This document shows positions 7,263 through 62,695 of a DNA stretch of 64,000 nt, in pieces. Made by a program: the position numbers and the translations under genes. Positions within the stretch are counted from its first letter, which is position 1, and each line of letters starts with the position of its first letter. Location of the stretch: positions 32,001 through 96,000 of the IMG/VR virus record IMGVR_UViG_3300043395_002432; one strand, given 5' to 3'. Origin of the DNA: a virus. Under the pieces are notes generated by a model. It had not been told where the DNA came from. It was given only the letters and a program-made list of their open reading frames with translations, and made no database searches.

Positions 7263-7292
7263 CCGTTCCTCCGCATTCGAATTCGTCTTAGC

Positions 7293-7838
7293 CTACCGGG
7301 CCGTCTTGAGCGTAGGACGACCGCCACTCGGCGTCGTCGAGATCAGCTTGGTCTGAATGAAGAGATCGAACTCCGCCCTAAGGTCGACCTCCGAGATCAG
7401 GATGTCTCCGCCCATGTACGCTGGGCAGATCCACGCCCCCACCTCGGCATTCCAGACCCACTCCTGCCCCTGGAGGAGCTTGCGCGCTGCCGTCATGAGG
7501 AGCGCCATTCGCTTCGCCTTCGCGTCCGTCCCCCGGTGGGCCTCTACGTCCCCCGTGAATTGCAGGACGAACATGGAATTGAGCCGCAACCGCTCGATCA
7601 GATCCGGGTAGATCTGCTCGCAGGTTCGCACCAAGGCGATGAAGATCGCCATGCCGCTGACTTGCGACACCACGCTCAGCGAAGGCTTGTACGCCTCCAC
7701 CACCAAGCCACAGCCCAGGTCGACCCGTGTGACCTGCTGCGCGTGGGCATTGATCGTGTCCGCCAACGAGACCAATCCCCCACCGAACGTATCCATGAAC
7801 GACATCAGAAGCCCTCGTCCACAAGGATACCCACCCAC
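7293..7838 (-). CDS. Hypothetical protein
   Basis: ORF in gene string; start may be near 7805. Confidence 0.55.
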   Translation of the reverse strand: MGGYPCGRGLLMSFMDTFGGGLVSLADTINAHAQQVTRVDLGCGLVVEAYKPSLSVVSQVSGMAIFIALVRTCEQIYPDLIERLRLNSMFVLQFTGDVEAHRGTDAKAKRMALLMTAARKLLQGQEWVWNAEVGAWICPAYMGGDILISEVDLRAEFDLFIQTKLISTTPSGGRPTLKTAR

Positions 7839-7894
7839 CCCGAATGGATCGCTAAGAACCTGCTAAGGCGGAGGCGACGACGAATTCGAATTCG

Positions 7895-8272
7895 TCAGAT
7901 CCCGAAGGGAGACTTCGTCGGCAACGCCCCTCGCGCCTCCTCCTCGGCTCGCTTCCGCTCCTCGCGCTTCCGCTCCTGCCGCACCTGACTGATCCGAATC
8001 GCCAGCTCGTTCTCCTTCCGCTTCAGCCCCCGCTCCTCCAAGAAGATCGTCGTGCGCGCCTTCTCCCGCATGCGGTAAAGCTCCTGCACCAAGTCTGACT
8101 TCGCTTGGTGCATCTTTCGCAGCTTGATCATCTCCTCCGTCGTCAGCTCGCGCCCTTTGCGAGCGTCAGACATCTCCTTGACGAACGCTCGCTGCTTGGC
8201 CGAGAGCTTGACCGCCAGCAAGTCACTGATCACGACGAGCATGCTCAGATCGTTATCGTCGAATGCGAACAT
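7895..8272 (-). CDS. Hypothetical coiled-coil protein
   Basis: Charged helical ORF directly after the 8275 stop. Confidence 0.6.
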   Translation of the reverse strand: MFAFDDNDLSMLVVISDLLAVKLSAKQRAFVKEMSDARKGRELTTEEMIKLRKMHQAKSDLVQELYRMREKARTTIFLEERGLKRKENELAIRISQVRQERKREERKRAEEEARGALPTKSPFGI

Positions 8273-8274
8273 GG

Positions 8275-8526
8275 CTACTCCAGAAAGGGGACGAAGGGGG
8301 CGGCATGCAAAGCCTCGATCCGCATGTCGTCTATCGACATTTCCGTCGTGACCGGACTCGCCAGATCCTGTATCTCCCAATCCCCCGAAGCCTCTACTGC
8401 CCTGGCTCCGTTCAGGAAGGCATCTGGATCGAGCATGCCGATCTGCTTCAGCACCGCTGGGACGTCAGCCGGATCGCATTCAAGCACATGCACGGCGACG
8501 AATTTCAGCCTCACCTCTGTGGGCAT
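8275..8526 (-). CDS. Hypothetical protein
   Basis: 83 aa; GAGGAGG RBS. Confidence 0.6.
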   Translation of the reverse strand: MPTEVRLKFVAVHVLECDPADVPAVLKQIGMLDPDAFLNGARAVEASGDWEIQDLASPVTTEMSIDDMRIEALHAAPFVPFLE

Positions 8527-8528
8527 AG

Positions 8529-8567
8529 AAAACCCTCCTCTTGGGAGAGTAACCCCAAGAGGAGGGT
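8529..8567 (-). terminator. Intrinsic terminator after thyX
   Basis: 14-bp stem ACCCTCCTCTTGGG/CCCAAGAGGAGGGT followed by TTTT on the minus strand. Confidence 0.65.
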
Positions 8568-8575
8568 GGCGTTGC

Positions 8576-9475: not shown

Positions 9476-10007
9476 GCTGTCTCCTTGCCTCTTCGAATTG
9501 ATCCCACTTGAAGCGACTCCTCGCCGGAACGAGAAGACCGATCTCGCGTGAGGAGATCGGAATTCGAATTCGTTCATTCACCAAGAGCCACTCGTCCTCT
9601 CTAACCAAGGTGCCTCTGACCTCGAAGGAGTCCATCACACGGTATTCCTCTCCCACCAAGAGGAAGCCTCCGAGCGGCCCCTGCATGTCAAGGACTCTCG
9701 CCGCCGAGATGCCGACGTCGAGGTGTGCGCTCACCAAGAATGCCCGGTGGAGTGCCTCCTCCGCTCGCTCGAGCGTGATCCGGGTCGACACCGGGATCGG
9801 CTCAGGTATCCCGTCCGAGAGTCGCCACACGTCCCGCCGCTCCCCCTCTCCACCAAAGGCCGGAAGGATGGAGATCGTCTCCATCCCCTCCCGCAAGAGG
9901 CGCGGATACACCAAGACCTCTACCTCCCCAAGAGAAGCCGAGATCCGATACCACCAGCCCCGCTGAATACTGCAATGCCAAGAGGCGCGACGCACGAAAG
10001 CCCCCAT
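9468..10007 (-). CDS. Hypothetical protein
   Basis: Only long ORF spanning the gap; boundaries uncertain. Confidence 0.4.
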   Translation of the reverse strand: MGAFVRRASWHCSIQRGWWYRISASLGEVEVLVYPRLLREGMETISILPAFGGEGERRDVWRLSDGIPEPIPVSTRITLERAEEALHRAFLVSAHLDVGISAARVLDMQGPLGGFLLVGEEYRVMDSFEVRGTLVREDEWLLVNERIRIPISSREIGLLVPARSRFKWDQFEEARRQHE

Positions 10008-10020: not shown

Positions 10021-10038
10021 TAACACGCCGAGGGCGGG

Positions 10039-10763: not shown

Positions 10764-11396
10764 TTACACTCCTTGTCGTGAGAACATATTCAGCATTCTC
10801 TGGGAAGGGAACCCCAGAAATGTCACGGAACCGTCCGGGGCGATCTGGATCTCCGTCCCCCGCTGAGCGAAGTCGAATTCGCTGAAGCGGTTAGTGAGGT
10901 GGTGAAATTGCTGGTTGGCGGAACCAGCCATGCGGACGGTCTCTGGCTGACGCAGGTCGAACGGCCCGTCGATCAGCGTGTCCACCAAGCCCTCCCCCTC
11001 GATCTGGCACCAAAGGGGGCGCTTGAGGAGGAAGGATCGCGTGCGGCCCGAGTAGAGAATGACGCTCTCCACTCGGGGGCGAGCCACGCGCAGGAACTCG
11101 AGCAGCTCAGGGAGCTGATCTGTGGGTTCCCCCCCCGAGATCGTGAGGTGCGTGCTGACGCTCAGCACCTCACGAACGAGCGCCTCAGGGGTGAAGTGTC
11201 GCACCAACACCCCAGCGGGGCTGTGGGTGTGGGGATTGAAGCACCCTGGGCAGCCAATGCTGCACCCCGCCGTGTGCAGGACAGCTCGCAGCCCAGGGCC
11301 GTCGACTCTCGACGGTACGATCTCTCCGTAGATCCTCACCCTACCTCCAGCCCCTCTAAGATAGGCACCGACGCGGGTTTGTCCGCGCCTTGACAC
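10764..11396 (-). CDS. Radical SAM protein, NrdG (anaerobic RNR activase)-like
   Basis: SRVDGPGLR...GCSIGCPGCFNP (CxxxCxxC), TISGGEP, LIDGPF, GSANQ. Start uncertain. Confidence 0.9.
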   Translation of the reverse strand: MSRRGQTRVGAYLRGAGGRVRIYGEIVPSRVDGPGLRAVLHTAGCSIGCPGCFNPHTHSPAGVLVRHFTPEALVREVLSVSTHLTISGGEPTDQLPELLEFLRVARPRVESVILYSGRTRSFLLKRPLWCQIEGEGLVDTLIDGPFDLRQPETVRMAGSANQQFHHLTNRFSEFDFAQRGTEIQIAPDGSVTFLGFPSQRMLNMFSRQGV

Positions 11397-11408: not shown

Positions 11409-13211
11409 TCAGGCGTCGAAGTCGTCGCTCTGATACGAGATCAGGGGAGAGAGCGGCGCGGGCGAAGGCTTCACAACCTCCAGCGAGCGAGCCAGACGCG
11501 CCCGATCCCGACCGAACGCCTGCATTGCCTTGATCTGATCGCCCATAGTCTTCGAGAGCGGGCGTGTCGCGTTGGCCGCTTGTGTTAGATCCGCCACCGT
11601 CAGATCCCGCATGCCGTCGTCAAAGGCGATCAGCACGGCTTCCTGCACCACGCCCTCGATCTCAGCACCAGAGAAGCCCTCGGTCGCCTCGAGGATCTGC
11701 CCCACCGAATTCGAATTCGTGATCGCGTCAGGATTGCGTCCCGTCTTCCGAATGTGAATCCCGAGGATCTCCTTTCGCTCGTCCGCGTTAGGGAGGTCGA
11801 CGAAGAAGATCTCGTCGAAGCGCCCCTTTCGCAGCAGCTCAGGCGGGAGCTTGCTGATATCGTTCGCCGTCGCCATGACGAACACAGGATCGCGCTTGTC
11901 ATTCATCCATGACAGGATCGTCCCCATTACACGCGACATCGTCCCGCCGTCCGACGACCCGCTGGAGGCGGCACCGCTCAGCCCCTTCTCGATCTCGTCG
12001 AGCCAGAGAACGCAAGGGGAAAGCTTCTCAGCGAGAGCCAGGGTCTTGCGGGTGTTTTCCTCGGAAGCCCCCACAAGCCCAGCGAAAAGCTGGCCCATGT
12101 CGAGGCGGAGACACGGCACCTCGAGGAGCGACGCGACGGCTGCGACGGAGGCGCTCTTGCCCGTTCCCGGTACACCAAGCATCAGCACCCCCTTCGGAGC
12201 CTTTACGCCGAACTTGAGCGCCTCGGGCGAGAACGCACGCTTTCTGATCCCGATCCACCGCTTGAATTCCCCCATGCCCCCGATCTCGGCCATCGGCTTC
12301 GGCGGGTAGAATGTGAGCATTCCGCCCTTCGAGATGGACTCGACCTTCGCCTTCGTGACCTCCGCGATCAGCTCCTTTGAGGGGTCTTCCGTCGCATTGC
12401 GGATCGCAATGCTGACGAAGTTCCGCATCTCCACAAGGGAGAGACCCTTGCATGCCGTCACCAATGCCGCGAGCTTGTCGGGTGCCTCGTAGGGAATGAC
12501 GACCGGGGACGTCGCCTTCGACTGGCGAAGGAGGCTGCTAAGCTGCTTGCGAAGCTCATCTGCCCCCGGCGTCCCAGGCTGAATGCGGAGCGCGTCAATG
12601 TCCAGCCCAGGGATTGACGCCTGCGTCTTAGCGTCGAGGAAGATCAGCGTCAGCCCCTGCGCCCGAAGCCGGAAGGTGAGGTCGCGCAATGCCCGCGCCT
12701 CTACCGCATGCTCCGCGACGTATCGCCAAGCGTCGAGAAACACGATCCATGGCATGCTGTTCTTGCCATAGCCCCGGAAGTCGAAAACGTCCCCGCTGGG
12801 CGACTCCTTCTCCTTGAGCGGCCCCTTGCTGATCAGGTTCGTCAGCGCGACGTCAATGTGGCCGAGGGCAGCCGCCAACTGGCGGATCGGCGCGTTGTTG
12901 AACAGCGCCGGGTTTTTGTACTGAACGACACGCTTGGTGGCGTCCGATTCCGAGATGCTCTCGGCCTTCATGATCGAGTGAGCCTCCACGGCGATCTCCG
13001 CATAGCTCCTCGCCTGCTGGAAGCCTTTGGTGGCAGTCCAGATCCAGAAGTCACGCCCCGTACCGAGGGCGGCGAGGCGGAGATCGCTGAGGTAGCGCAC
13101 CTCCTCTCGGGTCTCGACGCACACCATGCCGACGCGTGAGGCGAGGACAGCCTCGAGGTCGGCGGGAAGGAATCGAACCGGCGCATTAGGCTCGGCTTGC
13201 TGAATGCTCAT
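11409..13211 (-). CDS. Ycf46-like AAA+ ATPase
   Basis: Degenerate N-terminal ATPase (ETREE.R, WT...G); PKGVLMLGVPGTGKS; LWLDEIEKG; LPPELLRKGRFDEIFFVDLP. Confidence 0.92.
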   Translation of the reverse strand: MSIQQAEPNAPVRFLPADLEAVLASRVGMVCVETREEVRYLSDLRLAALGTGRDFWIWTATKGFQQARSYAEIAVEAHSIMKAESISESDATKRVVQYKNPALFNNAPIRQLAAALGHIDVALTNLISKGPLKEKESPSGDVFDFRGYGKNSMPWIVFLDAWRYVAEHAVEARALRDLTFRLRAQGLTLIFLDAKTQASIPGLDIDALRIQPGTPGADELRKQLSSLLRQSKATSPVVIPYEAPDKLAALVTACKGLSLVEMRNFVSIAIRNATEDPSKELIAEVTKAKVESISKGGMLTFYPPKPMAEIGGMGEFKRWIGIRKRAFSPEALKFGVKAPKGVLMLGVPGTGKSASVAAVASLLEVPCLRLDMGQLFAGLVGASEENTRKTLALAEKLSPCVLWLDEIEKGLSGAASSGSSDGGTMSRVMGTILSWMNDKRDPVFVMATANDISKLPPELLRKGRFDEIFFVDLPNADERKEILGIHIRKTGRNPDAITNSNSVGQILEATEGFSGAEIEGVVQEAVLIAFDDGMRDLTVADLTQAANATRPLSKTMGDQIKAMQAFGRDRARLARSLEVVKPSPAPLSPLISYQSDDFDA

Positions 13212-13289
13212 TTGAATGCTCCGTCGCTGAAGTTAGGATCAGCCCCGACCATTCGTCGCTAAGAACGTGTCAAGGCGAAGTCGAATTCG

Positions 13290-16054: not shown

Positions 16055-16082
16055 ACGCTCTCCTGAGCGAAGTCGAATTCGC

Positions 16083-16652: not shown

Positions 16653-16727
16653 TGAGCCTCCAAGCTCGGAGCTATCACGCAGCGAATTCGAATGCACTGA
16701 GAATCTTGGTGCCTTGACAAATTCTCG

Positions 16728-17854: not shown

Positions 17855-17917
17855 CCGAGACCTCTCTGGGAGAGATTCATCGGTTTCGCGCCCCAGCGCA
17901 AGCGAATTCGAATTCGC

Positions 17918-18465: not shown

Positions 18466-18926
18466 GAATCCTCCTCTGGCTCAGGCTCGTCGAAGTACAG
18501 GAAGGTGTCCCCCTCGACGTCGACGGGAGAGGGGTCAGCCGGGGCTGCCTGAATGTTCCCCTCAGGGGAATGGCCCTTGTAGAGAACCTGACTGCTGATC
18601 CGGTGAATCATGGAGATCGAAATCTCGTGCAAGAGCGCCCGAAGATCCGTGATTCGATTCGACCGAAGCTCGACCTCAGTCCCTCGCATGATCAGGATCT
18701 CCGCCACGCCAGGATCGGGCTGGACGATCCTCACCCCGTAGTCCAGATGAATCTCCATCCCGCTTGGTGCAGGAACGCACGAGGAGAAGACGTTGCGCCC
18801 CAGGATCTCCGCCAGCGTCGTGATCGTCCAGCCAAGATTGCCGTCGTGGATGAGGCTCTTGGGCGAATTCGACTTCGTTGGAACGGCAATCTGCGTGGGA
18901 GGCGGTGGAGGGGGGCGCTCGTGCAT
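18456..18926 (-). CDS. Hypothetical protein
   Basis: ORF in gene string; start uncertain. Confidence 0.5.
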   Translation of the reverse strand: MHERPPPPPPTQIAVPTKSNSPKSLIHDGNLGWTITTLAEILGRNVFSSCVPAPSGMEIHLDYGVRIVQPDPGVAEILIMRGTEVELRSNRITDLRALLHEISISMIHRISSQVLYKGHSPEGNIQAAPADPSPVDVEGDTFLYFDEPEPEEDSWL

Positions 18927-19181: not shown

Positions 19182-20273
19182 TTAGTCGACTTCCTCTGCT
19201 CCTTCCCATGCCGACCACGGAAAGCCCTGCACCAAGGAGAGCCAACGACGCTGGGCCTGCGGCCCCTCCAGGGGAGCGTGCGGGAGGTAAGGGCGGCGGA
19301 GCGCGTTCGTCACGGAGGTCATGACGAACGTCTCCTCGGGCGTCCACGTCTCCTCGGGGAGGAACTTGTACCCTTGGTGCTGGAAGGCTTGCATCTCCAC
19401 ATGGAGCGCCATCCGGTCGATCCGAGCCATGCGATCAAAGTCCCACGGAGTAGGAACGCCGAGCGACTTCTTGATATGCCGATCCCACGCTTGGTGGACT
19501 TCCTTGAAGGGAACCACATGCACGATCCCCTGAACCACGCCCGCATGGATCATGGTGCGCGAATGCATCTTCCCAGGCAGATCCTTCAGGTACGCCTCGG
19601 GCGCGTCATGGAGCGCCGCCAGACGAATCTCATGCGCGCTCAGCCCCAAGAGCATCGCAATGTCCGCACAGAGGAGCGAATGCGCCCCAACGCTCCACGG
19701 AACCCCGCCCGCATACCGGGTCTCTCGAAAGAGGTGCTGCACCACGTCGGTGTAGATCCGAACCCACGTGCGCTCGGGGTGAAGGAGGTGAACCTCCACC
19801 CCAGAGCCGGTCGCCCAATCGAGCGAAGTCGACTTCGCTGGCTCGGGGATCTGGCTCACGAAGGTGGGGATCGGCATGAGATCCATCTCGGACGGACGAG
19901 GGTGCGCCGAGAGGAGTCGAAGGAGGTCGCTCTGCACCTCCTCCGAGAGACCGTCACGACGCGCATACACCAAAGCGTCCATCAGCTCCTCGCGGAAATC
20001 CTGCACGCCACGCCCGTCCCCATGCTGCACGGGACGACCGTACTTCAAGATCCCAAGCGCACGACGTGCCTCAAACTCTCGACGGAGCGCAGGGGGGATC
20101 TCAAGGCTCTCGAGGATCTCGAGCCAAACGTCACCAAAGCCCCCCTGTGGCGCAGGAGGGCCGAAGGGCAGGCAAGGTGAGGGGATCGCTGCCAGCGCGT
20201 CACGTTGGGCCGCTGACAGCCCCTGTGCAGCCTCTGGTGGGGCGAGGCGCGTGTAGAGGTCGAGTAGGGTCAT
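19182..20273 (-). CDS. Fusion: MazG-like all-alpha NTP pyrophosphatase + HD-domain (YfbR-like) deoxynucleotide phosphohydrolase
   Basis: N-terminal R..LG..KYG......GR...D.REEL.DA.VY; C-terminal RYAG....SVGAHS...ALHDAPEAY..D...D..AL..E. Confidence 0.75.
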   Translation of the reverse strand: MTLLDLYTRLAPPEAAQGLSAAQRDALAAIPSPCLPFGPPAPQGGFGDVWLEILESLEIPPALRREFEARRALGILKYGRPVQHGDGRGVQDFREELMDALVYARRDGLSEEVQSDLLRLLSAHPRPSEMDLMPIPTFVSQIPEPAKSTSLDWATGSGVEVHLLHPERTWVRIYTDVVQHLFRETRYAGGVPWSVGAHSLLCADIAMLLGLSAHEIRLAALHDAPEAYLKDLPGKMHSRTMIHAGVVQGIVHVVPFKEVHQAWDRHIKKSLGVPTPWDFDRMARIDRMALHVEMQAFQHQGYKFLPEETWTPEETFVMTSVTNALRRPYLPHAPLEGPQAQRRWLSLVQGFPWSAWEGAEEVD

Positions 20274-21184: not shown

Positions 21185-21212
21185 GCGCCCTCCGAATTCG
21201 ACTTCGTCGTCT

Positions 21213-27661: not shown

Positions 27662-27766
27662 ACGAGCCTATAGCCAACGAATTCGAATGCACCAAGCCAG
27701 TGTCAAGGATCTGTCAGGGTGGGAGAGAAGGAGGGGAAGGGGATCGGGGGGTGCTTAGCTTGAAGC

Positions 27767-29721: not shown

Positions 29722-29741
29722 GACGAATTCGAATTCGCTGC

Positions 29742-31238: not shown

Positions 31239-31263
31239 TCGCTCCTCCGCGAATTCGAATTCG

Positions 31264-33804: not shown

Positions 33805-33873
33805 TTGATTCTCCTCGATGCTCCTGTGGGTAACTCAGGCACCAAGATCGAGCCAACGACGAAGTCGAATTCG

Positions 33874-36252: not shown

Positions 36253-36435
36253 GCTCTTAGATCCTCACGCTAAGATCGCCTTTACCCGACGAGAGCCAAA
36301 AAGCAAACCCAGCCGACGAAGTCGAATTCGCTGCCGCAGGAAATTTTCGAAGAGCTTCGAATGCGGTCTGCACCAAGACCTCGAATGCGGCTGTGGGAGG
36401 GGTTGGGGAGGGTGAGGAGACCACCGCCGCTATAA

Positions 36436-38384: not shown

Positions 38385-39115
38385 CAGGCAACCTTCCCGA
38401 GCGCCTCTACCTGCTCCTTGGTGAAGAAGGTCTGCCCATGCTTCTTCGACCACATGGCCACAGCCTCTCCCAAGCCCCAGGAGCGAATGTCTCCCCACAG
38501 GATCGCCGCCTGATACGGCGTGAGCGACGGCTTGATCTTCAAGATCCGATCCGTCTCGGGGGCGTTGAGCGGACGAATGACCGGGTGAAGCTCGCTCTCC
38601 TGATCCTCAGGACTCCAACGGTCGTCCCCCTCCTCCAGCACGACGCGGGTAGAGATGTCCTCCAGCACGAAGAAGGTCTGGGCATCGTAGGAATACGCCG
38701 TCTCCGTGCGCTCCGTAGCCGTCCTCCGCATGCTCCCACGAACCTCTCGCTCCGTGGGCGAATTCGAATGCACCACACCCTCCGCAAGCACCTTGCCCAT
38801 GAGCGAGCAGACCACGAAGCGATCCCCACTCGCCAGAAGCTCTGGAGCGACCAGCCACGCCCTCGAAGGGTGCGACGCCGCCACCATCTCCAAGAGCGAG
38901 AGCAGCTCCGCGCTCACCTCCGCCTCCGAGACCTCCTTCACTGGCCACCGCTCGTCCCCATGCACCGTTCGCATGCTCTTGTAGACCGTCGTCACCAAGG
39001 CATAGAAGCCGTCCGGGTCAGACTTCTCCTTGTCCGGGTACTCCTGTTGAATGATCTCCTTCGACTGAATCCAATCCTTCTCTTCCTCAGGGGTACGCAC
39101 CAATGCTGAAGGCAT
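38384..39115 (-). CDS. Hypothetical protein, possible internal head protein
   Basis: GGAG RBS; several LxE sites. Confidence 0.6.
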   Translation of the reverse strand: MPSALVRTPEEEKDWIQSKEIIQQEYPDKEKSDPDGFYALVTTVYKSMRTVHGDERWPVKEVSEAEVSAELLSLLEMVAASHPSRAWLVAPELLASGDRFVVCSLMGKVLAEGVVHSNSPTEREVRGSMRRTATERTETAYSYDAQTFFVLEDISTRVVLEEGDDRWSPEDQESELHPVIRPLNAPETDRILKIKPSLTPYQAAILWGDIRSWGLGEAVAMWSKKHGQTFFTKEQVEALGKVA

Positions 39116-39704: not shown

Positions 39705-39740
39705 AAAAGGGGAGAACGAATTCGACTTCGTTCCCCCCCT
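39705..39740 (-). terminator. Terminator hairpin built on the 14-bp palindrome
   Basis: GGGGGGAACGAAGTCGAATTCGTTCTCCCC then TTTT. Confidence 0.65.
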
Positions 39741-40538: not shown

Positions 40539-40604
40539 TTTGATCTCCTACTGAAGAAGCGATAGCGTATTGACGAGAATCGGGCAACGCGAATTCGAAT
40601 TCGT

Positions 40605-41871: not shown

Positions 41872-41910
41872 AAAAAGGAAAAGGCGGAACGCATTCGAAT
41901 GCGTCCCGCC
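41872..41910 (-). terminator. Intrinsic terminator after major capsid gene, built on a palindrome variant
   Basis: GGCGGGACGCATTCGAATGCGTTCCGCC followed by TTTTCCTTTTT. Confidence 0.8.
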
Positions 41911-43396: not shown

Positions 43397-43556
43397 TGTT
43401 CGTTCTCCTCTGTTCGCTGTAGAATCGGTCTGCTAAAAACGTGCAAGCCTCAGAAGCGAGCTTTTTCAGTCGGGAACGAATTCGAATTCGACGCACCAAC
43501 GAGATGAGGAGAGGGGATCTCCCTCTCCTCAGCGTACTCTGGCTGCTCTTGGTGCC

Positions 43557-45904: not shown

Positions 45905-45956
45905 AAAAGAAGGTAGGGCTGGCGACGAATTCGACTTCGCCACCAGCCCCGCCTTC
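45905..45956 (-). terminator. Long hairpin with the 14-bp palindrome at its apex
   Basis: GAAGGCGGGGCTGGTGGCGAAGTCGAATTCGTCGCCAGCCCTACCTTC followed by TTTT. Confidence 0.65.
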
Positions 45957-47896: not shown

Positions 47897-47923
47897 GTTC
47901 TCCTCCAACGAATTCGAATTCGT

Positions 47924-49820: not shown

Positions 49821-50294
49821 TCAGCTCCCCTGGAAGGGCTGGAGATCCTCGGGGACGTCGAAGAACTCCAGAGACTCATAGGCACGATCCTCGTCCTCAA
49901 GGCGGGTGAGGTCGTCCCGGTCGTCCTCAGCGTCGTCGTCGCCACGCCAGCCGTCGATCCCCATTTGGATCTGGTCGACCGCCTCTTGCAGCGTCGCTGC
50001 GCTGGCGACCGGGCAGGTGAACACCCAGCGATCCGTCGACACCGGATTGACGCGGATCGTGACCGCCTCAATCCAGTGGTCGGGGGAAGACCAGGGGAGA
50101 ATGCCGACCGCGATCACGCCGAGGTCGAATTCGGCGCGCAGGCCGAGCTGGTCGGCGCGCATGAAGTGCCACACGCGCTCACGCTGAGCGCGCTCATGGA
50201 GCGCCTCAGTGGTGAGGTGGATCGGGGCCGCGCTCGTCAGCGCGAGGGTGGCGGGGATCGAGGCGAGGGGGTTGGCGGTCGTCATGCCCCTCAT
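49821..50294 (-). CDS. Hypothetical protein
   Basis: 157 aa, acidic C-terminus. Confidence 0.55.
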   Translation of the reverse strand: MRGMTTANPLASIPATLALTSAAPIHLTTEALHERAQRERVWHFMRADQLGLRAEFDLGVIAVGILPWSSPDHWIEAVTIRVNPVSTDRWVFTCPVASAATLQEAVDQIQMGIDGWRGDDDAEDDRDDLTRLEDEDRAYESLEFFDVPEDLQPFQGS

Positions 50295-50325: not shown

Positions 50326-51249
50326 TTAGGCCGTCTTGACTTCTTCTTGACAGGATTCGTCCGCAGGAGGCGGGGGCGGATCTTCTGGTGCCGTATCCTG
50401 CATGAGCGCAGCCGAAGGAACGTACCCATTCAAGAGATCGAGAAGGACGTCCGCAGGCTCGATCCCATTCTCCTTGAATCCCCGCAGCTTCTCATGTAAG
50501 AAGGCGAATCGCTCCTCGGAAGCCACGTTGACGTAAATATGATCCTTGCCCCCGTAGGAGAACACCAAGAAGTGCGAGCCAAGCTCATTGCCGTCCGTCG
50601 TGAACACCTTCGAGATGATGTTGCTCAGATCCTCGGGGGTCTTGGCCCCTGAAGCGGCTTTGTCGAACTCTTGGAGCTTCTTGCTTCGAGTCTGCTTGTC
50701 TACGCTGTCCAGGGCTTGCTTTACGGAGAGCCGAGCAGACGACAGGAGCTTTTCATACGACTTGTCGTCGGTGATGCCCATTGCCTCCTGAAGAAGCTCC
50801 GCCGGGTGGCGAAGGATCAGATCCATGTAGAGCTTCGAGAATTTCTCGGGACTCACCCTGCCGTGGATGAGGTTGAGCCTCATGGTGATCAGGTTGCGAA
50901 GATCCTTGCAGGCTTGGTCGTTGCCCGCGATCTTGGGATCGTGAATGATCATGGCGGGTATGGTCGTGTGGCCAAGCGAAGCGCACGCACGCATGCGATG
51001 CTCGCCACCAATGAGCTGGAACGTCCCATGTGGGGTCGGCCATACCTGAATAGGGGCGATCATCCCAACCTCTTGAATCTCCTTCACCAAGCGAGCGAAC
51101 TCACGCTCGTTCATCGTGTTCGGATTCAGGGGATTCTTCTCGATCTTGGCGATCTCAAGAGCAGGATTGAAGTCGAGCGTATGGTGCGACGAAGTCGACT
51201 TCGCTGCCGTCGTTGCCAGAGCTTCTTGCGGATACATGACGTCGGACAT
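50326..51249 (-). CDS. ParB/Srx N-terminal domain protein
   Basis: NP.NPN.M....F..L...I...G...PI.V; IGGEHR.RA...LG...IP. Confidence 0.88.
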   Translation of the reverse strand: MSDVMYPQEALATTAAKSTSSHHTLDFNPALEIAKIEKNPLNPNTMNEREFARLVKEIQEVGMIAPIQVWPTPHGTFQLIGGEHRMRACASLGHTTIPAMIIHDPKIAGNDQACKDLRNLITMRLNLIHGRVSPEKFSKLYMDLILRHPAELLQEAMGITDDKSYEKLLSSARLSVKQALDSVDKQTRSKKLQEFDKAASGAKTPEDLSNIISKVFTTDGNELGSHFLVFSYGGKDHIYVNVASEERFAFLHEKLRGFKENGIEPADVLLDLLNGYVPSAALMQDTAPEDPPPPPADESCQEEVKTA

Positions 51250-51615: not shown

Positions 51616-53048
51616 TCACCAAAGAGTCCGACCTGCGCTTGACGAGGCTTCGGCTTCGTGGCTTCGTCGTAGCGGGGCCGCTGCGGAAGCCCCTGAACCT
51701 CACGGGAGGCGTAGTCGCACCGACCGTAAATGACGGACTCCATCGCGGGATCTCGCTCAATGAGGGTGATCGACTGGCGATTCAGGACGGCAGCCACGCC
51801 CGTGGTGCCAGAGCCTGCAAACGGATCGAGGATCTCGCCACCGGGGGCCGTGATGAGGTTCAGGCACCAACGCATCAGCTCCACAGGCTTCACAGAGACA
51901 TGCGGATTCCAACGCTCGGTCTTGGTGCCGTCCGAATTGTCGAAGACCTTGAGCGGGGGCAGATGCTGCAAACCCAGATCCTTCTCCTCCAGGGTCGGCT
52001 TCGGGCAGTAGACGAAGCCGTCGTGATCCGTCCATTGGTGGTTGTTGAAGCGCATGCTCTCCGCCGAGAGCGGATCAGCGAACGGGTCGACCTGCCCATG
52101 CATCGCAAGCACAGGACAGCCCACGACGCACTTGGTGGAGGTGCATTCGAATGCGTGCGTCATGACCACGTTCGCCGGAAACCGCCCCATGTCGTAGCTC
52201 TGAGCAGGAAGCGAGCGATACTCCCCATGCGCGTTCGAATCGAGCAGCTTGCGCTTCCCTGAAGCCGTCACTCGCGCCCCCTCGGAGCCGATCCGGCAGG
52301 ACTTGATGTTGAAGCCCCCCGTCCCCCACTTCAGCATGTTCTCCGCAATGGTCGCCTCACTGATCGGCTTCTGCACCACTGAGATCGGCTCGGTCGCAGG
52401 CTTCAGCCCTGAATGCCAATCCTCGAAACGCTTGCCCTCCTCAGAAGCGGGGTGAAGGCGACGGAAGACGCGACTCTCCCCGTCCCCGTATCCTACGCTC
52501 GCCGTAGGATTGAGCAGCTTGGTGTGATCCCTTCCAGCCCCCCGATTCGACAGCTCCCCCTCACGGGAGCTGACACCAAGGTGGTCGTCGATGGCAAGCC
52601 CTATATTGAGACCCCGAGGCATCCCGGTCGCGTAGTGCCAAGTGATCATGCCGCGCTGCTGGAATCCCGCAAGACGAAGCGCCATCCCCATGAGGTCGAA
52701 CGTGCGCGTCCCAGAGAAGGTCAGCAGGTAGCCCCCAGGACGAAGGACGCGAAAGCACTCGTACCAGAAATCTGGCCCAGGCACCCAGGCATCCCACTCC
52801 TTCCCCCCGATCCCGCTCTTAGGCTTGGTGCGCGTCGCTGGCCCCGTGTACCGCTCCCCTCGAGCCTCCGCCTCCAGCACCAAGCGAAGCCACTCGCTCC
52901 ACTCCAGAAGCACCTGACGCTGCATCCGCTCCTGCTCCTCCGCAGAGGAGAGACCATACGGAGCATCCGTCACAATGGCGTGGTAGTAGTTGTCGGGGAT
53001 TTGGCGAAGGTACGCGAGGGAATCACCAATGTGTATCCTGGGAATCAT
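51612..53048 (-). CDS. N6-adenine/N4-cytosine DNA methyltransferase (beta class)
   Basis: TDAPYG (motif IV variant), RVLRPGG, LKPA.EPI, GRFPAN, H..VKP..LM, LDPFAGSGTTG. Confidence 0.92.
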   Translation of the reverse strand: MIPRIHIGDSLAYLRQIPDNYYHAIVTDAPYGLSSAEEQERMQRQVLLEWSEWLRLVLEAEARGERYTGPATRTKPKSGIGGKEWDAWVPGPDFWYECFRVLRPGGYLLTFSGTRTFDLMGMALRLAGFQQRGMITWHYATGMPRGLNIGLAIDDHLGVSSREGELSNRGAGRDHTKLLNPTASVGYGDGESRVFRRLHPASEEGKRFEDWHSGLKPATEPISVVQKPISEATIAENMLKWGTGGFNIKSCRIGSEGARVTASGKRKLLDSNAHGEYRSLPAQSYDMGRFPANVVMTHAFECTSTKCVVGCPVLAMHGQVDPFADPLSAESMRFNNHQWTDHDGFVYCPKPTLEEKDLGLQHLPPLKVFDNSDGTKTERWNPHVSVKPVELMRWCLNLITAPGGEILDPFAGSGTTGVAAVLNRQSITLIERDPAMESVIYGRCDYASREVQGLPQRPRYDEATKPKPRQAQVGLFGE

Positions 53049-53086
53049 GAACGCTCCGTGATAGGGCGATCTATCACAGGATCGGG

Positions 53087-53581: not shown

Positions 53582-53644
53582 CGGGTTCCCTCTCGCTCCC
53601 TTGTTCGATTCCTCCTTGGTGGGCAAACGAATTCGAATTCGTCT

Positions 53645-55930
53645 TCAGCCCATGATGAAGGGAGGGGCGGGGACGTCCGGGTTCGCGTCGCTCGTCCCCT
53701 TCTTCGTCTCAAGCCCCGCGTCGTTGAGCCGCTCTACAGGGGCGTACTCGCGCCGATCCAGCTCCGTCATGCCGCCCCCGTCCCACTCTCGCCAGTTCTC
53801 GGGGGTCTTCGAAGGGGAAACCCACTCCAACCCGTCCTCCTCTGTGGTGCCATTCGGATACTCCCGAGCAGCCTCAATCGCCTTCTGCGTTAGGATCGGA
53901 TCAGGCTCAGGGGCAGCACCACGAAGGTGACGTAGCTCCACGTTTTGGTGCCGGAACGGCGCTCGAGGATTGATCGAGTCCTGCGTGACCCAATGCGTGT
54001 CCTCGAGATCCGCCCCCCCATGCACCAAGTCCGAATCAATGTACGACGCCTGCCGAAGGGCCATCAATTCAAGGTTCGTCACCACGCCAGCCACAGCGTC
54101 AGACGTGTCCTTCGATCCACCAAGCGGGTGATCCACCTTCCGCGACAGCGGGTCGTACTCGAGCTGCTTCATCTCGGTCAGGAAGGGTTCGTACTCGTAC
54201 ATCCGAACACGCCCCTCCATGAGCGCGTTTCGAAGCGCCTCATACGCCTCCGTCCCGTCGTCCACCGAGAGGAGGTTCGCCGGTATCCCATTGTCACGAA
54301 GGATCTGGATTCCGTCCGCTGACTGATACTTGTCCAACGTCGTCAACGCTATCTCGAAGCCATGATCCCGAAGCGCGTAAATCAACGCCCGAATCTCTTG
54401 AAGCAGGATGTACTCTCCGCTCGGAGGCTTCACCCTCAAGACGAAGTCGATCTCGATCTCAGGCGCTGACTCGAAGTAGGTCTCCGCAAAGTCAGGCGAA
54501 CGCCGCTCGACCTGCACCAAGCGCGTCGTATGCCCCATGCTGATCCCAAGCCCGTCTCGCGCCAACGACTGATCGACATGGATCACACGAACCGAGTCAG
54601 GGTGACGACGCGGAACCCAACGATACTCATGATGCCCCATGCCAACCTTGATCTTCTTTCGCTCACACAAGACGTCCCAAAGCGGGAGTAGCTTGCTCTG
54701 AAGAATCCAAGTCTCGCTCGAGAAGGGATGCTTCAGCTCTGGACGGATCGTAGGACGGTACAAGCACGCTTGAATCGTCAAGAAGGACGCCACAGCGTCC
54801 GTAGCCATGCCAGCAACGTCCTGAATGCTCGACACGAGGTTGATCTGAAACTCCTTGACGTACTCAAACGGGACGTTGATGATCGTACTCCCGTCCCGAA
54901 GTGCCGATGGATGCACCTCCTCCTTCGGGGCCAGAATGCGAGAGCGTGTCGACCCCTGCCCCACCAAGACTCGGAAGTACTTGCCACTGAAGCTCTCGGC
55001 AGGCTTGACGTCCCACGTCGCCTTGTCAACCACGTAGGTGGTCGGATCGTTCTTTCGCTCGTTCACGCGACGCGCCGAGAACGAATTCGAAGTCGTCTTC
55101 GAGGACATCAGTACCGTCTTCATCGGCACCTTGCCCCCAGAGAGGAAACGGCTCTTGATACGATTCGTGAGCGTGACATACACACGCTCCGCAAGATCGA
55201 AATTCGCCGCCGTCATCGTCTGCCCAGGGGACTGAATGACAGGCTTCTTCCGGCGTCCCATGAAGTTCGTCTCGTCCATGAGGAAGCCAACGACGTCAAG
55301 ACCCAGCGCACGCTCAGAGTTGACGGAGCCAATCTCTACAATAATGCTCTTCGGAAAGCGAATCCCGTCCGCCCTCTCCGTCCAGGGAAACTCCTTCTTG
55401 AAGTAGGGCGAGCTGCTGATCTTCTCCATCACCTTGCCAAGCACGACGCTCTTTGCAAGGTGCAAGCTCTTCGACATGCAGAAGAGGTATATGTTGGAAG
55501 TAGGCGCAATCCCAAGCGCAGACTGCGGGGAACGCATACACGAAAGCTCGTAGAGCTGCCGACAGAAGATGATCGACCCAAGGAAGGTCTTTCCCCAACC
55601 CGTCGACCCTGTCAGGATAATGTCAATGTACCGATCCGCCTCGAAGATTCGATCCAGCTCGTCCTTCAGCGGCTCGTAAAGCGACTCGCACGATTTCCCG
55701 AGAAAGTATGGATCTTGCACGAAGGTTCGTATATCTACCGGCTCCCGATCAAAGACCGCACGCGAGATCGCTTGGTAGGTGCTGTTCGAGCCTATCGCCG
55801 CCTCTTGGATCATTCGAAGGAAGAGCCTCCGCTGCTCGGGCTTGAGTGAGGCTATGGAGTCCTCGATGAGCGCAGCCTCCTCCTCCTTGGTGCGAATGTG
55901 ATGCGAACGCCCACCGCGATTCCGTATCAC
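53645..55930 (-). CDS. Terminase large subunit
   Basis: Walker A TGSTGWGKT, Walker B FLMDE, nuclease HVD.S...D and KVDHP..GSKD.SDAVAG. Confidence 0.93.
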   Translation of the reverse strand: MIRNRGGRSHHIRTKEEEAALIEDSIASLKPEQRRLFLRMIQEAAIGSNSTYQAISRAVFDREPVDIRTFVQDPYFLGKSCESLYEPLKDELDRIFEADRYIDIILTGSTGWGKTFLGSIIFCRQLYELSCMRSPQSALGIAPTSNIYLFCMSKSLHLAKSVVLGKVMEKISSSPYFKKEFPWTERADGIRFPKSIIVEIGSVNSERALGLDVVGFLMDETNFMGRRKKPVIQSPGQTMTAANFDLAERVYVTLTNRIKSRFLSGGKVPMKTVLMSSKTTSNSFSARRVNERKNDPTTYVVDKATWDVKPAESFSGKYFRVLVGQGSTRSRILAPKEEVHPSALRDGSTIINVPFEYVKEFQINLVSSIQDVAGMATDAVASFLTIQACLYRPTIRPELKHPFSSETWILQSKLLPLWDVLCERKKIKVGMGHHEYRWVPRRHPDSVRVIHVDQSLARDGLGISMGHTTRLVQVERRSPDFAETYFESAPEIEIDFVLRVKPPSGEYILLQEIRALIYALRDHGFEIALTTLDKYQSADGIQILRDNGIPANLLSVDDGTEAYEALRNALMEGRVRMYEYEPFLTEMKQLEYDPLSRKVDHPLGGSKDTSDAVAGVVTNLELMALRQASYIDSDLVHGGADLEDTHWVTQDSINPRAPFRHQNVELRHLRGAAPEPDPILTQKAIEAAREYPNGTTEEDGLEWVSPSKTPENWREWDGGGMTELDRREYAPVERLNDAGLETKKGTSDANPDVPAPPFIMG

Positions 55931-56842: not shown

Positions 56843-57093
56843 GCCGCCTCAACGAATTCGACTTCGTTGGCACATGCGGTGAAGACGACGTCCGCCATTC
56901 GAAGGGTGATGCTGGTCATGGGCAACCCCTCGACAATGATAGGCTCTCCGCTCTTGGTGCGAGGAGAAGAGATCGTCAGCCAGGAGACCCCCTCGTCGAG
57001 GAAGTGCGTGCAGCCTCCACCAAGCATGCACGAACGCCCCGTGATGTTGGCACTCTCGCCCGTGATCCCGACCACCACCAGCTTCTTGCTCAT
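56839..57093 (-). CDS. Hypothetical protein
   Basis: GGAG RBS; 84 aa. Confidence 0.55.
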   Translation of the reverse strand: MSKKLVVVGITGESANITGRSCMLGGGCTHFLDEGVSWLTISSPRTKSGEPIIVEGLPMTSITLRMADVVFTACANEVEFVEAA

Positions 57094-59311: not shown

Positions 59312-59330
59312 TCCCCTCCCCCCCCTCAGA

Positions 59331-60344: not shown

Positions 60345-60495
60345 TGTTGCTCTCCTGAGGTAGCCCCGGAAGGGGTCGGTTTGACGCCCCCTATATAAGC
60401 CCAACGAGGGGTCGAGGCGAGAACGAATTCGACTTCGTTGGGGCGGTTTGCTCGTTCTTGACAACGAGGCGAAGAAGATGCCTTCGAGCGTGCAG

Positions 60496-61161
60496 TCACG
60501 CTCGCGGCTTCGATCTTGGTGCCTTCTTCTTGATCTCCCCCATGAGCTGCGCCTGGATCGACTCTGGGGGCGGTAACGCAGGAAGCCGAAGGTTCGCCTC
60601 CACCGCACCAGCAAGCGCCGTGATCAACGCGTCAGCCTCATGGTCGTTCGCCGTCGCCGGGATCGGAAGCTGAATCTGACGCAAGCGCCCTAAAACCCAC
60701 GCCTTGACCTGCGCCTGCTTGATCTCCCGAGGAGGAGCGCGCCCCAAGACCAGCTTGCGCGCACGCGGGCTGGCAATCTCCCGAATGCCAGGAAAGGGAA
60801 GCGAAGTCTTGGTGCGCCACGCCTGCGCCACAGCAAGCTGGCACGCCCAATGCGCCCCACCGAGCTGCCCCATGCGCCCACCAGCCATTCCAAACGCCAT
60901 GCCCTCTATCGAGATCGCCACAACCTGCTCAGGCGCGTACTCCTCCAGAAGCACATGCACCAAGTGAGACAACGCGTCGCTTAGGTGCAACAGCCGACGA
61001 AGGTCGTCATTCTCTCCATCCCCCTTCTCGCTCTTGATCGTCAGGAGCCGAACCAACGCCCCCTCGGGCGTGCAGACCGCAACCCCCGTGTTCGAGAGCG
61101 AAGCGTCGATCCCCATCACCAAGCGCGATCTTCTCTCCCCGAGCTTCTCCACCTTGAACAT
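60496..61161 (-). CDS. RuvC-like Holliday junction resolvase
   Basis: MGIDASLSNTGVAV, IEG..FG, ND.EADA. Confidence 0.85.
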   Translation of the reverse strand: MFKVEKLGERRSRLVMGIDASLSNTGVAVCTPEGALVRLLTIKSEKGDGENDDLRRLLHLSDALSHLVHVLLEEYAPEQVVAISIEGMAFGMAGGRMGQLGGAHWACQLAVAQAWRTKTSLPFPGIREIASPRARKLVLGRAPPREIKQAQVKAWVLGRLRQIQLPIPATANDHEADALITALAGAVEANLRLPALPPPESIQAQLMGEIKKKAPRSKPRA

Positions 61162-61214
61162 GCCGCCCCCCAATGGAAAAGCCCCAGAAGGGGCCACCGC
61201 TCTTGGTGTAGAGA

Positions 61215-61634
61215 TCAGCCCATCTGCCGAATCAGATCCGTCACCTCAGTGACCGTCTTGGGCGACAGCGAGATCAGGTACACCACCGAATCCTCCCGAT
61301 TCGCCTGAGGACGATTCCCGTACATGTCCCGCCAATTCCGCCGAAACTTGTCCAGATCAGGCGTCGCAGAACACTCCGACGCACGCTGCTCCGTGAGCTT
61401 CCCGAGCTTCACCTTCTGAACGTGACGAACCGTCCAAGCAGCGGGCGGCGCACCTTGCTCGTCAGACTCGAGGATCACCGAATTGTCGTGCCGACGAAGC
61501 GATACAGGCTTCAGCTCCGTAGGAGCCATTGCCTCCGTCATGTAGTGACGCGCCAGCACCAACGCCGGTCGATTGCCAGCGGACTTCCGCTGCTCGTAGT
61601 AGCTGTCCTCAATCGCACTGAGCTTGATCGACAT
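61215..61634 (-). CDS. Hypothetical protein (ASCH/PUA-like possible)
   Basis: V..V....L..LTE..A........F...W..MY........V..I pattern. Confidence 0.5.
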   Translation of the reverse strand: MSIKLSAIEDSYYEQRKSAGNRPALVLARHYMTEAMAPTELKPVSLRRHDNSVILESDEQGAPPAAWTVRHVQKVKLGKLTEQRASECSATPDLDKFRRNWRDMYGNRPQANREDSVVYLISLSPKTVTEVTDLIRQMG

Positions 61635-61687
61635 TCATCCCCTCTTGGTGAACGACGCATTCGAATGCGTCTCAGCTCGAGAGTAAC

Positions 61688-62182
61688 CTACTTCGCCAAG
61701 CCACGCTGCTGACATTCCCAGCGATACCGACGCATTGCCAGATCCGCATTCGTGAGTTCGCACTCGATCTCGAAAGCGTAGAGCGGGTACTTCCGATCCA
61801 CCGTCCGTCGCCCCTCAGGCGAAACAAGCGTCATGGTGCGCGGAATCGGCTTCTGCTGGTGGAACCGATGCTGCTCCAGAAGGAAGTCGCTCTCCTTTAC
61901 CCGGTAGACGAGAAGGGAGATGGCGTAGTGCGACTCAAGCCACCAGTCCTTCTCTCCCTTCGGATCAAACCAATCCGTAAGGTGATTCGCAAAAAGACCC
62001 AGAACCCCAGGAATCGCTTTCGCCTGCGGCCTCATCACCGTCAGAAGCGCCTGATCGATCTTCTTCAGATGCTCCTCCTCCCGAAGGAGCGAAAGCGCGA
62101 AGGGCTTGCGATACGAATCCCACCACTGCAAGATCTGCTCCCTCATCCGCACCAACGTCGCCTCGTGCGGAGCAGGGGTCAC
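61688..62182 (-). CDS. Hypothetical protein
   Basis: GTGA-coupled to the upstream nuclease. Confidence 0.55.
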   Translation of the reverse strand: MTPAPHEATLVRMREQILQWWDSYRKPFALSLLREEEHLKKIDQALLTVMRPQAKAIPGVLGLFANHLTDWFDPKGEKDWWLESHYAISLLVYRVKESDFLLEQHRFHQQKPIPRTMTLVSPEGRRTVDRKYPLYAFEIECELTNADLAMRRYRWECQQRGLAK

Positions 62183-62658
62183 CGTGAAAGCTCCTCGTTG
62201 AACTCAGCAAAGACCGAAGAAGGCACCAAGACCCACTCAGACTCGCACAGCGGATCGCTCACCTTCAACTTGATCTCCAACGCAGGAAGACGCCCCTCCC
62301 CACGCGCCTCATTCGTGATCTTCTCAAGCCACTCGCCCTTCACACTGATCGAGCCGTGGATCGTTTGCTTCATCTCGATCAGGAAGGCACGCGTTTGCAC
62401 GTCCCCCTTCGATAACGCGCTGCTCCCACTCCCAGGCTTCACACGCCCACCATACCGAGACGCCGAAACCTTCTCCTGAAGCGACGCCCGATCCCGATTC
62501 GAACGCTCCACAGGCGTCGACCGAATCGCCTTCCGCTCCTCGTACCGCGAACGCGCCTCTCGCCTCAATGCCTCTCGCTCCTCAGCCTCAGCACGAAGAC
62601 GAGCCTCGCCCTCCTCCTCTGACTCGAACCGACTCCGAACCCGAAATCCCTTGATCAT
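62179..62658 (-). CDS. PD-(D/E)XK nuclease, Hjc-like resolvase
   Basis: QE...A...GG...PGSG.....KGDV.....LIEMK.T. Confidence 0.82.
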   Translation of the reverse strand: MIKGFRVRSRFESEEEGEARLRAEAEEREALRREARSRYEERKAIRSTPVERSNRDRASLQEKVSASRYGGRVKPGSGSSALSKGDVQTRAFLIEMKQTIHGSISVKGEWLEKITNEARGEGRLPALEIKLKVSDPLCESEWVLVPSSVFAEFNEELSR

Positions 62659-62695
62659 GTCTCACCCCGATGAACGAATTCGAATTCGCCACACC

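Follow-up and report, generated by a model that had tools for sequence, protein, structure and literature searches.

A regularly spaced lattice of short palindromes covers a T4-like virus contig and may provide docking sites for a symmetric phage DNA-binding protein

A 14-base-pair (bp) palindrome, CGAATTCGAATTCG, recurs at regular intervals along a virus contig from the IMG/VR database (record IMGVR_UViG_3300043395_002432), of which bases 32001-96000 form the 64,000-nucleotide (nt) window analysed here. Counting matches to the core with at most two mismatches, the threshold used throughout unless stated otherwise, the window holds 39 copies against 0.42 expected, and 100 dinucleotide shuffles produced at most 2. 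The window-wide lattice reported in a preliminary description of this DNA reaches past the window over the whole of the single 139,496-bp contig (61% G+C), where we count 91 copies: 20 are exact, 66 have at most one mismatch, and 122 are found if three mismatches are allowed. CheckV rates the contig as 68% complete, so that 'genome-wide' here means contig-wide. All but one of the 35 start positions listed previously fall within our 39-copy set; the remaining one (52142..52155, inside a methylase gene) has three mismatches and joins two half-sites that are both allowed, TGCATTC and CGCATTC, and five window copies, starting at 2782, 5249, 25634, 44778 and 50120, are added to the earlier list. 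From the properties of these sites we consider it about as likely as not that a symmetric phage DNA-binding protein, probably a dimer, docks or loads at the palindromes, and that selection maintains them for coverage of the whole chromosome.

Position counts over the 91 copies extend the full site to 18 bp, RRCGAATTCGAATTCGYY. Purines fill the two positions 5' of the core in 81 and 83 copies, and pyrimidines the two positions 3' of it in 80 and 75, while variation inside the core is limited to positions 3 and 5 and their mirror positions. As had been proposed, the site is assembled from interchangeable halves: among 182 half-sites, CGAATTC accounts for 102, CGAAGTC for 40 and CGCATTC for 18, leaving 22 others. 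Read on the coding strand, these three variants occur 50, 22 and 9 times as left halves and 52, 18 and 9 times as right halves, and the equality of the two spectra indicates that the site has no strand bias. Moreover, positions 5 and 10 form Watson-Crick pairs in 44 copies, compared with 49.4 expected if the halves were independent, positions 3 and 12 do so in 71 copies compared with 68.4, and the five flank pairs show no covariation (permutation P from 0.14 to 0.80). The halves thus vary independently, which speaks against a selected hairpin; equal and independent halves are what would be expected of a symmetric dimer on double-stranded DNA, unlike a hairpin. Direct inspection shows that the site contains GAATTC twice and TCGA once. 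A box for LexA or another host regulator was considered and rejected: the Gram-positive SOS box requires C at the position matching site position 5, C stands there in only 1 of the 91 copies, and related motifs occur in phages of unrelated hosts.

Genes were called with our own crude caller (longest open reading frames (ORFs), filtered on G+C at third codon positions), and starts were refined by a Shine-Dalgarno rule. On the refined calls, 54 of the 91 contig copies are intergenic and 37 intragenic, with non-coding DNA making up 21.7% of the sequence; the earlier statement that most copies fill intergenic gaps is roughly right for the window also on the crude calls (22 of 39). Placement varies with match quality, exact copies dividing 17 to 3 between gaps and genes and two-mismatch copies 9 to 16. 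The core lies within 1 nt of the upstream stop codon in 14 of the 54 intergenic copies and within 7 nt in 21, and in the stop-abutting copies the GA or AA of the stop codon doubles as the purine flank. Four copies had been described as abutting a stop, and in all four the distance from stop to motif is 0 nt: the exact copies at 7881..7894 (intergenic) and 31250..31263 (after a TAA stop, with the next start 11 nt on), and the one-mismatch copies at 13276..13289, which is followed by a TTGACA-type promoter-like element, and 33860..33873, at the end of the tail sheath gene. More generally, some copies touch the next ribosome-binding site and others come before a repeated TTGACA-type element.

The intragenic copies are written into coding sequence through codon choice. 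In 200 synonymous-codon shuffles that preserved the proteins, the coding DNA acquired a mean of 6.3 copies and never more than 12, compared with the 37 observed; the non-coding DNA holds 54 where 0.055 are expected. Synonymous-codon choice is therefore bent toward making sites. The frame xCG-AAT-TCG-AAT-TCG is used in 23 of the 37, and the in-frame readings given previously are correct: TNSNS in the exact copy at 11706..11719, inside an AAA ATPase gene, TNSTS in the one-mismatch copy at 24155..24168, inside a 1238-amino-acid (aa) ORF, and AKSTS in the two-mismatch copy at 51190..51203, inside a gene for a ParB-like protein. Pfam agrees with the AAA ATPase and ParB-domain identities.

Successive copies in the contig are separated by a mean gap of 1533 bp (range 235-3810), with a coefficient of variation (CV) of 0.50. 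This value was compared with two null models, one of uniform placement and one aware of gene gaps, in which the split between intergenic and intragenic copies is kept and intergenic sites are drawn from real gene gaps. The null CV averaged 0.98 and 0.94, respectively, and the observed CV was reached in 0 of 5000 replicates of each, so the even spacing noted by eye withstands both comparisons. Regular tiling of this kind points to a coverage requirement.

A sister metagenome contig (L110), 92.0-93.0% identical over 10.7 kb, keeps all nine of the copies that it covers in place. Only 2 of 126 motif positions differ, compared with 982 of 10,673 positions elsewhere (9.2%; binomial P = 5e-4), and both differences are T/G swaps between allowed variants at the variable position; they fall in the one-mismatch intergenic copy upstream of the sheath gene (36317..36330) and in the exact intergenic copy upstream of the capsid gene (43477..43490). 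The three intragenic copies covered are all kept, and are identical in the sister: 36999..37012 (one mismatch), 38759..38772 (two mismatches) and 44778..44791 (two mismatches, inside a gene with a prohead-protease domain). This comparison indicates that the lattice sites are under purifying selection. Since the 10.7-kb sister contig shows no presence/absence differences, a selfish mini-insert was rejected as the source of the copies. At orthologous gene ends, site sharing with distant kin is not above chance (two-by-two table [[12,10],[4,5]], P = 0.70), suggesting that density is kept as positions turn over. Taken together, the counts, spacing, conservation, half-site structure and unconserved positions favour the earlier suggestion of a dimeric binder that would act on the whole genome rather than on operon-specific operators.

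One gene in the contig, and only one, encodes a protein with a ParB/Srx fold, which we consider the likeliest candidate for the reader of the lattice (307 aa, 50326..51249, minus strand; Pfam ParB_N 9.3e-12, 45.3 bits against a cut-off of 26.3). It sits in the packaging module, with the terminase on one side and the portal on the other. Of the solved structures, Noc and ParB come closest to it in sequence, and Noc, ParB and KorB in fold, Noc being the top match both by sequence and in Foldseek. A structure model built from 35 sequences (predicted local distance difference test score, pLDDT, 75) has a firm ParB/Srx N-domain, which aligns with sulfiredoxin, PadC and KorB at VIA-align Z scores of 11.0-12.1; residues 130-290 are modelled as helical with a beta hairpin. 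In the nucleotide-binding arginine box, G81, G82, H84 and R85 are invariant in the 35 homologues, as are N126 and G130 in the region of box III (ENLQR), where the Glu is replaced in this protein.

Homologues of this protein lead to lattices in other phages. A tblastn search recovered cultured siphoviruses with full-length ParB-like homologues at 25-31% identity, and the seven that were read, DLP5, RcTiptonus, RcZahn, JP1, RHph_Y1_11, PG28 and KarBoss (records MG189906, MW677527, MW677529, PQ741606, MN988558, MT735630 and PQ758715; loci L148-L186), share both the ParB-fold protein and the terminase with the present phage. Each has a lattice of its own, made of a 14-bp motif of TGCAA-N4-TTGCA type that is palindromic or nearly so. 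The motif is TGCAATCAATTGCA in DLP5 (36 places at no more than one mismatch; 0 for the reversed control), TGCAATCGATTGCA in RcTiptonus (52 copies), TGCAAACGTTTGCA in JP1 (43), TGCAATTAACTGCA in PG28 (34), a motif of the same type in KarBoss (32), TGCAACAAATTGCA in RHph_Y1_11 (28) and TGCAAT..ATTGCA in RcZahn (9 with exact arms). In the six other than RcZahn, spacing at two mismatches has a CV of 0.39-0.62, compared with about 0.96 expected (P from 0 to 0.002). Of the 12 sites in the 25 kb of DLP5 that are annotated, 10 are intragenic and the other 2 lie directly after stop codons. Five annotated siphovirus records share the gene order glycosyltransferase, small ORF, ParB-like, ORF of about 200 aa, terminase, and the RcZahn record opens with the last three.

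Among uncultivated viruses, a scan of IMG/VR with the ParB alignment gave 80 loci, and nine whole contigs were then read, of which six are lattice-positive. The motif is GAAATCGATTTC in G001, the closest kin and of T4 type, TGCAATCGATTGCA in G002, also of T4 type, and TCCAATCAATTGGA in G016, a 160-kb T4-type contig with terminal repeats (23 copies with exact arms); G022 carries TGATCTTAAGATCA and TGAACTTAAGTTCA, and G003 and G004 carry TGCAA-N4-TTGCA in 49 and 36 copies. No lattice was found in the whole contigs G011 and G012, and at most a weak one in G008. Most of the roughly 20-kb ParB loci likewise gave none, at a length that can miss sparse lattices, as the short loci L219 and L252 missed those of G016 and G022. 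In contig L111, whose sheath protein is 45% identical to that of the present phage, the CGAATTCGAATTCG-type motif is absent and GAAATCAATTTC occurs 8 times over 16.9 kb. Its copies are found in either orientation, some following stop codons and some lying within genes, and one caps a terminator-like hairpin directly after the sheath gene. By eye, all these motifs appear to fit one 12-bp frame, G/C-N-A-(A/T)-T followed by Y-R and the mirror image.

Two further repeats were seen during this survey. Rhodobacter phage RcSimone-Hastad (L187-L189) has a 10-bp palindrome, GGCCATGGCC, in 20 copies over 60 kb. SSU5-like IMG/VR loci (L265-L282), whose ParB matches cover the N-domain only, have a near-palindrome, GTAAGTACTTAC, with variants, in up to 8 copies per roughly 20 kb around the parB-like gene; rather than a lattice, they probably represent the usual cluster of parS sites or iterons that plasmid prophages carry.

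The comparative data bear on the identity of the reader. ParB-like homologues are present in every lattice phage examined, in a sample picked by ParB homologue, and Corndog, a mycobacteriophage with a published 17-bp lattice, encodes a ParB_N protein, gp90. Homologues of six proteins, namely an AAA ATPase, the ParB-like protein, the large terminase (TerL), a RecA-like protein, a superfamily 2 (SF2) helicase and a DnaB-like protein, occur in 7 of 7 siphoviruses, and among these six the ParB-like protein alone has a fold with sequence-specific, palindrome-reading members. The ParB-like product, alone among the three candidates raised in the preliminary description, has thus gained comparative support; the other two, encoded at 51259 and 59331, have no Pfam family. 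The AAA ATPase was also tried as reader, since all 7 siphoviruses and Corndog have it and none of the 4 negative controls does; it was dropped because the complete contig G016, which is lattice-positive, lacks it. A search for it in 26 IMG/VR records gave 1 match and was left unused, since the first filter of that search missed known matches elsewhere (RcZahn). None of the proteins of this phage separates the genomes, being shared by every lattice-positive one and missing from those without a lattice. On present evidence we consider it likely that the reader is a symmetric protein of some kind; that it is the ParB-like protein is a tentative assignment, somewhat more doubtful than probable.

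Several observations weigh against this assignment. Pfam finds ParB_N in the protein and no helix-turn-helix (HTH) family, and the model shows no convincing HTH: residues 130-290 are reached only by weak matches or by matches of high root-mean-square deviation (rmsd), such as Spo0J at Z 6.6 and pNOB8 ParB-N at Z 11.4 with an rmsd of 7.0. The arginine box reads GGEHRMRA instead of GERRxRA, the first Arg being replaced. Intact homologues occur without a lattice in G011, G012, Kitkat and nickie (the search covering 50 of 58.6 kb of Kitkat and 100 of 112 kb of nickie), and with a weak one at most in G008; conversely, neither tblastn with eight homologues nor PF02195 found a ParB-like gene in RcSimone-Hastad. 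In a quick IQ-TREE phylogeny of 64 rows (each tblastn match of at least 150 residues, labelled POS, MAYBE or neg by eye, and leaving out the N-domain-only loci L260-L263 and L265-L282, G022, Corndog and nickie), a clade of 21 homologues with 99% support is lattice-negative apart from one doubtful row, and it retains every conserved motif, without domain loss. In the rest of the tree 20 of 43 rows are positive, a Fisher comparison (0/21 against 20/43) that ignores relatedness, and the ParB tree may simply track the phage tree. Because phages were picked by ParB homologue, the co-occurrence is itself biased. Finally, a fast-evolving small protein, invisible to tblastn, could be the true reader. 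The protein of about 200 aa between the siphovirus ParB-like and TerL genes has no detectable homologue in this phage (best E 0.28). A search for a ParA-type partner with PF13614 and PF01656, with a loose first filter, gave no match in the 68%-complete contig.

We infer the following scheme from the lattice itself. A symmetric dimer would bind each 18-bp site on double-stranded DNA, and selection would act on coverage, such that no part of the chromosome lies far from a site. Selection for coverage would place sites in cost-free intergenic gaps, often with a stop codon lending its GA or AA as purine flank, and where no gap is available the site would be encoded in coding sequence via codon choice. 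The regular spacing and the capped maximum gap suggest that a factor, once landed, acts over one or two kilobases only; if the bound factor spreads or slides that far, the whole chromosome would need tiling. A ParB-like protein of KorB or Noc type could load at each site and coat or mark the entire viral chromosome, for packaging, compaction or protection. A link to packaging is suggested by where the gene lies, with the terminase gene to one side and the portal gene to the other, and by its being inherited along with a single terminase family. The fullest version of this idea is speculative, and we think it unlikely to hold in all its parts: a partner-less ParB/Srx nucleotide switch, co-inherited with the terminase, would load at evenly spaced palindromes that the phage has itself written, coat the chromosome and mark 'self' DNA for selective packaging, perhaps with compaction or shielding, its code drifting with the reader across T4-like myoviruses and siphoviruses of DLP5, RcTiptonus, JP1 and PG28 type.

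The pattern could instead reflect global transcription operators, at which a phage repressor or activator would stop, insulate or time transcription in the manner of the stoperators of Cluster A mycobacteriophages. The proximity of 14 intergenic copies to an upstream stop within 1 nt, and of 21 within 7 nt, fits such a role, as do the several copies that come before a TTGACA-type promoter-like element, the copy at 27678..27691 (two mismatches, intergenic), which lies between -35-like (TTGACA-like) and -10-like (TATAGG-like) hexamers, and the location of nearly all genes on one strand (137 of 158 on the minus strand by crude calls over the contig). We nevertheless judge operators improbable, given that 37 of the 91 copies, and 10 of 12 in DLP5, are intragenic, that many intergenic copies touch the next ribosome-binding site and leave no room for a promoter, that positions are unconserved with distant kin, that the site is symmetric where stoperators are asymmetric and oriented, and that operators need no even spacing. 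Equally improbable, in our estimate, are enzyme targets, whether of a 613-aa DNA methylase-domain protein (51612-53453, minus strand; Pfam N6_N4_Mtase 7.8e-20), of a modification pathway, or of a packaging-linked nuclease (terminase or ParB-like) that cuts or nicks palindromes at the start or end of a headful. The methylase gene lies between the terminase and ParB-like genes, so that its product may be a rival reader or writer of the site; the site includes two GAATTC and one TCGA; the ParB-like and TerL families are inherited together and adjacent in the siphoviruses; and passages of PMC7326821 report that 15 restriction enzymes failed to cut the DNA of DLP3, a phage related to DLP5, which suggests that the DLP3/DLP5 group modifies its DNA. 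Against this, an enzyme target would not normally show enrichment of about 200-fold or even spacing, only 2 of the 9 IMG/VR contigs tested gave methylase homologues, one of them without a lattice, and RcTiptonus is described, in the relevant passage of PMC8601537, as having one defined packaging start rather than many.

Hairpins in RNA or extruded DNA, acting as terminators, RNA-stabilising 3' ends, processing sites or elements like repetitive extragenic palindromes, would explain why many copies come after stop codons and why the copies at 39717..39730 and 41890..41903, the latter after the gp23-like capsid gene, cap strong terminator-like stems with U runs (-24.7 and -24.2 kcal/mol; z -4.6 and -5.8); about five such cases can be seen by eye in the contig, and L111 has one directly after its sheath gene. 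The two window copies are, however, the only such strong hairpins among the 6 copies folded, and four typical copies fold at -1.7 to -7.7 kcal/mol, no better than shuffles. The absence of covariation in halves and flanks, the common one-sided variants that break pairs (G at position 5, C at position 3), the lack of strand bias, the 37 intragenic copies and the separate terminator hairpins beside some copies all make hairpins an unlikely basis for the lattice, less likely than operators or enzyme targets, and the strong-hairpin copies are read as terminators that accommodate the site at their tip, not as the reason for the site. Least probable of all, in our view, is a role in replication or recombination, with the shared RecA-like, helicase or primase machinery reading the copies as priming sites, recombination hot spots, topoisomerase sites or the like. 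Even spacing on the kilobase scale resembles the length of Okazaki fragments, and RecA-like, SF2 helicase and DnaB-like genes are common to all seven lattice siphoviruses, but the same genes are present in the lattice-negative G011 and G012. The signals recognised by primases and those of Chi type are either short or oriented and without symmetry, and none of these enzymes is known to read 14-18-bp palindromes.

Docking sites for a symmetric genome-wide binder have partial precedents. Noc, an orphan ParB paralogue, binds a 14-bp palindrome at tens of sites on the Bacillus subtilis chromosome; its sites avoid the terminus, and it acts in division-site selection at the membrane, whereas the sites described here tile a viral genome evenly. 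Plasmid RK2 carries about a dozen sites for the ParB-family protein KorB, compared with about 90 here. As in the ParB, Noc and KorB clamps, which use multicopy palindromes of 14-16 bp, the present site has a 14-bp core, 18 bp with flanks, in 91 copies. KorB, which is among the structural matches of the 307-aa protein, has a defined HTH and the partners KorA and IncC; neither a convincing HTH nor a ParA-type partner was found here. Cluster A stoperators are many copies of one short site in small intergenic gaps bound by one phage protein; they lack symmetry, follow the direction of transcription and are recognised by the immunity repressor of temperate phages, unlike the present site, which is symmetric and without orientation and of which 41% of copies are intragenic. 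According to the passages on KorB in PMC11790492, this protein binds palindromic OB operators at many places in RK2 and acts remotely as a sliding clamp, and sliding of this type would explain selection for coverage.

The nearest published parallel is found in Cluster O mycobacteriophages such as Corndog, for which the repeat section of PMC4351075 describes a 17-bp palindrome, TGTTCGGNNNCCGAACA, that recurs more than 30 times along a 70-kb genome, with copies in intergenic positions, close to gene starts and within genes. Its authors propose a dimeric binding protein and consider transcription control unlikely (PMC4351075). As in the lattice described here, a single inverted repeat occurs in tens of copies within and between genes and is conserved in close relatives; unlike it, the Cluster O repeat has another sequence and a 3-bp spacer and belongs to a siphovirus of an actinobacterial host, and even spacing is not reported in that section (PMC4351075). 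The present lattice is denser, at one copy per 1.5 kb, is degenerate at defined positions, and its motif family spans other phages.

Within the main texts of the literature searched, genome-tiling short palindromes have been noted once, in Cluster O, and were there left unexplained; no other description of these motifs or of such a lattice was found in those texts. The strings 'palindrom' and 'inverted repeat' have 0 occurrences in the main texts of PMC8601537 and PMC7326821, as do 'terminase' and 'palindrom' in that of PMC12704722. What is added here is statistically regular tiling, purifying selection on the sites, and drift of the motif between lineages in which the lattice persists, together with related lattices in cultured, tractable phages of Stenotrophomonas, Rhodobacter, Agrobacterium, Rhizobium and Vibrio, which make an unexplained sequence pattern experimentally testable. 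If the ParB-fold protein is the reader, a chromosome-segregation fold would be used genome-wide by a virus and linked to packaging; if it is not, a new class of phage DNA-binding protein awaits discovery.

The remaining window copies, given as coordinates of the 14-bp core and without strand because the site is palindromic, show the same range of settings. Exact intergenic copies lie at 29724..29737, 40590..40603 (1 nt past a stop), 43477..43490 (as above), 47909..47922 (between the portal gene stop and the next ribosome-binding site), 53628..53641 (3 nt past the terminase gene stop) and 62675..62688, and another exact copy, at 17903..17916, falls in a doubtful plus-strand ORF of the crude call. 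Intergenic copies with one mismatch are found at 7272..7285 (7 nt after a stop and 9 nt before the next start), 16068..16081 (1 nt past a stop) and 21193..21206 (with a stop on one side and the next ribosome-binding site on the other), at 9559..9572 by refined start, and at 45926..45939 (the tip of an extended hairpin) and 60424..60437 by refined call; the one-mismatch copy at 56853..56866 lies in a doubtful plus-strand ORF of the crude call. Two mismatches occur in the intergenic copies at 16683..16696 (by refined call) and 61656..61669 (CGCATTC in both halves). Inside genes, the copies at 2782..2795 (697-aa ORF), 10868..10881, 18864..18877 and 55082..55095 (large terminase gene) have one mismatch, and those at 5249..5262, 19824..19837 (363-aa ORF without a Pfam family), 25075..25088 and 25634..25647 (both in the 1238-aa ORF) and 50120..50133 (157-aa ORF) have two.

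The phage that carries this lattice encodes T4-type virion proteins recognised by Pfam, namely a gp23-type capsid protein, a gp20-type portal protein, a prohead protease domain and a baseplate spike domain, as well as a tail sheath. A search of 36 of its proteins against Pfam named few, none of them an HTH protein; among those named is a ThyX-type (Thy1) thymidylate synthase (8576-9577, minus strand; 2.6e-36). The large terminase (761 aa, 53645-55930, minus strand) has no Pfam family and is 28.5% identical over 578 aa to TerL of Stenotrophomonas phage DLP5 (E 1e-74); all 7 siphoviruses have a member of this family, which is inherited along with the ParB-like gene. This terminase is not of the T4 gp17 type and belongs to the family of DLP5/RcTiptonus-type siphoviruses, as do the RecA-like, SF2 helicase and DnaB-like genes; these affinities indicate that the phage mixes T4-type virion genes with the packaging and replication genes of another lineage. 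As for close relatives, a 10-kb megablast against the 'phages' collection gave no match, searches of that collection and of IMG/VR with the sheath protein gave distant kin only, and an exact 14-mer scan of IMG/VR returned single, chance-looking matches only, among the matches listed.

Two other repeated elements were noted in the contig. The first is bipartite: TTGACAC, one base, TTCTTGAC(A/G) or TTCTTAGC, about 20 nt, and then TATCCT, TATGCT or TAACTT. It follows several lattice copies and precedes genes, at window positions 13230-13275 and 7840-7880 and further at genome positions 107800-107852, 113700-113746 and 120270-120314, and it is probably a class of phage promoter with an unusually long spacer, missed by a strict sigma-70 consensus scan of the coding strand, which found 2 sites, none near a lattice copy. 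The second is the 7-mer CTTGGTG, with 246 occurrences on the coding strand and 167 on the opposite one over the 139.5-kb contig (in the window, for example, across 433-63930), far above any composition-based expectation; it is located in genes and gaps alike, and by eye about six lattice copies have it within roughly 10 nt upstream.

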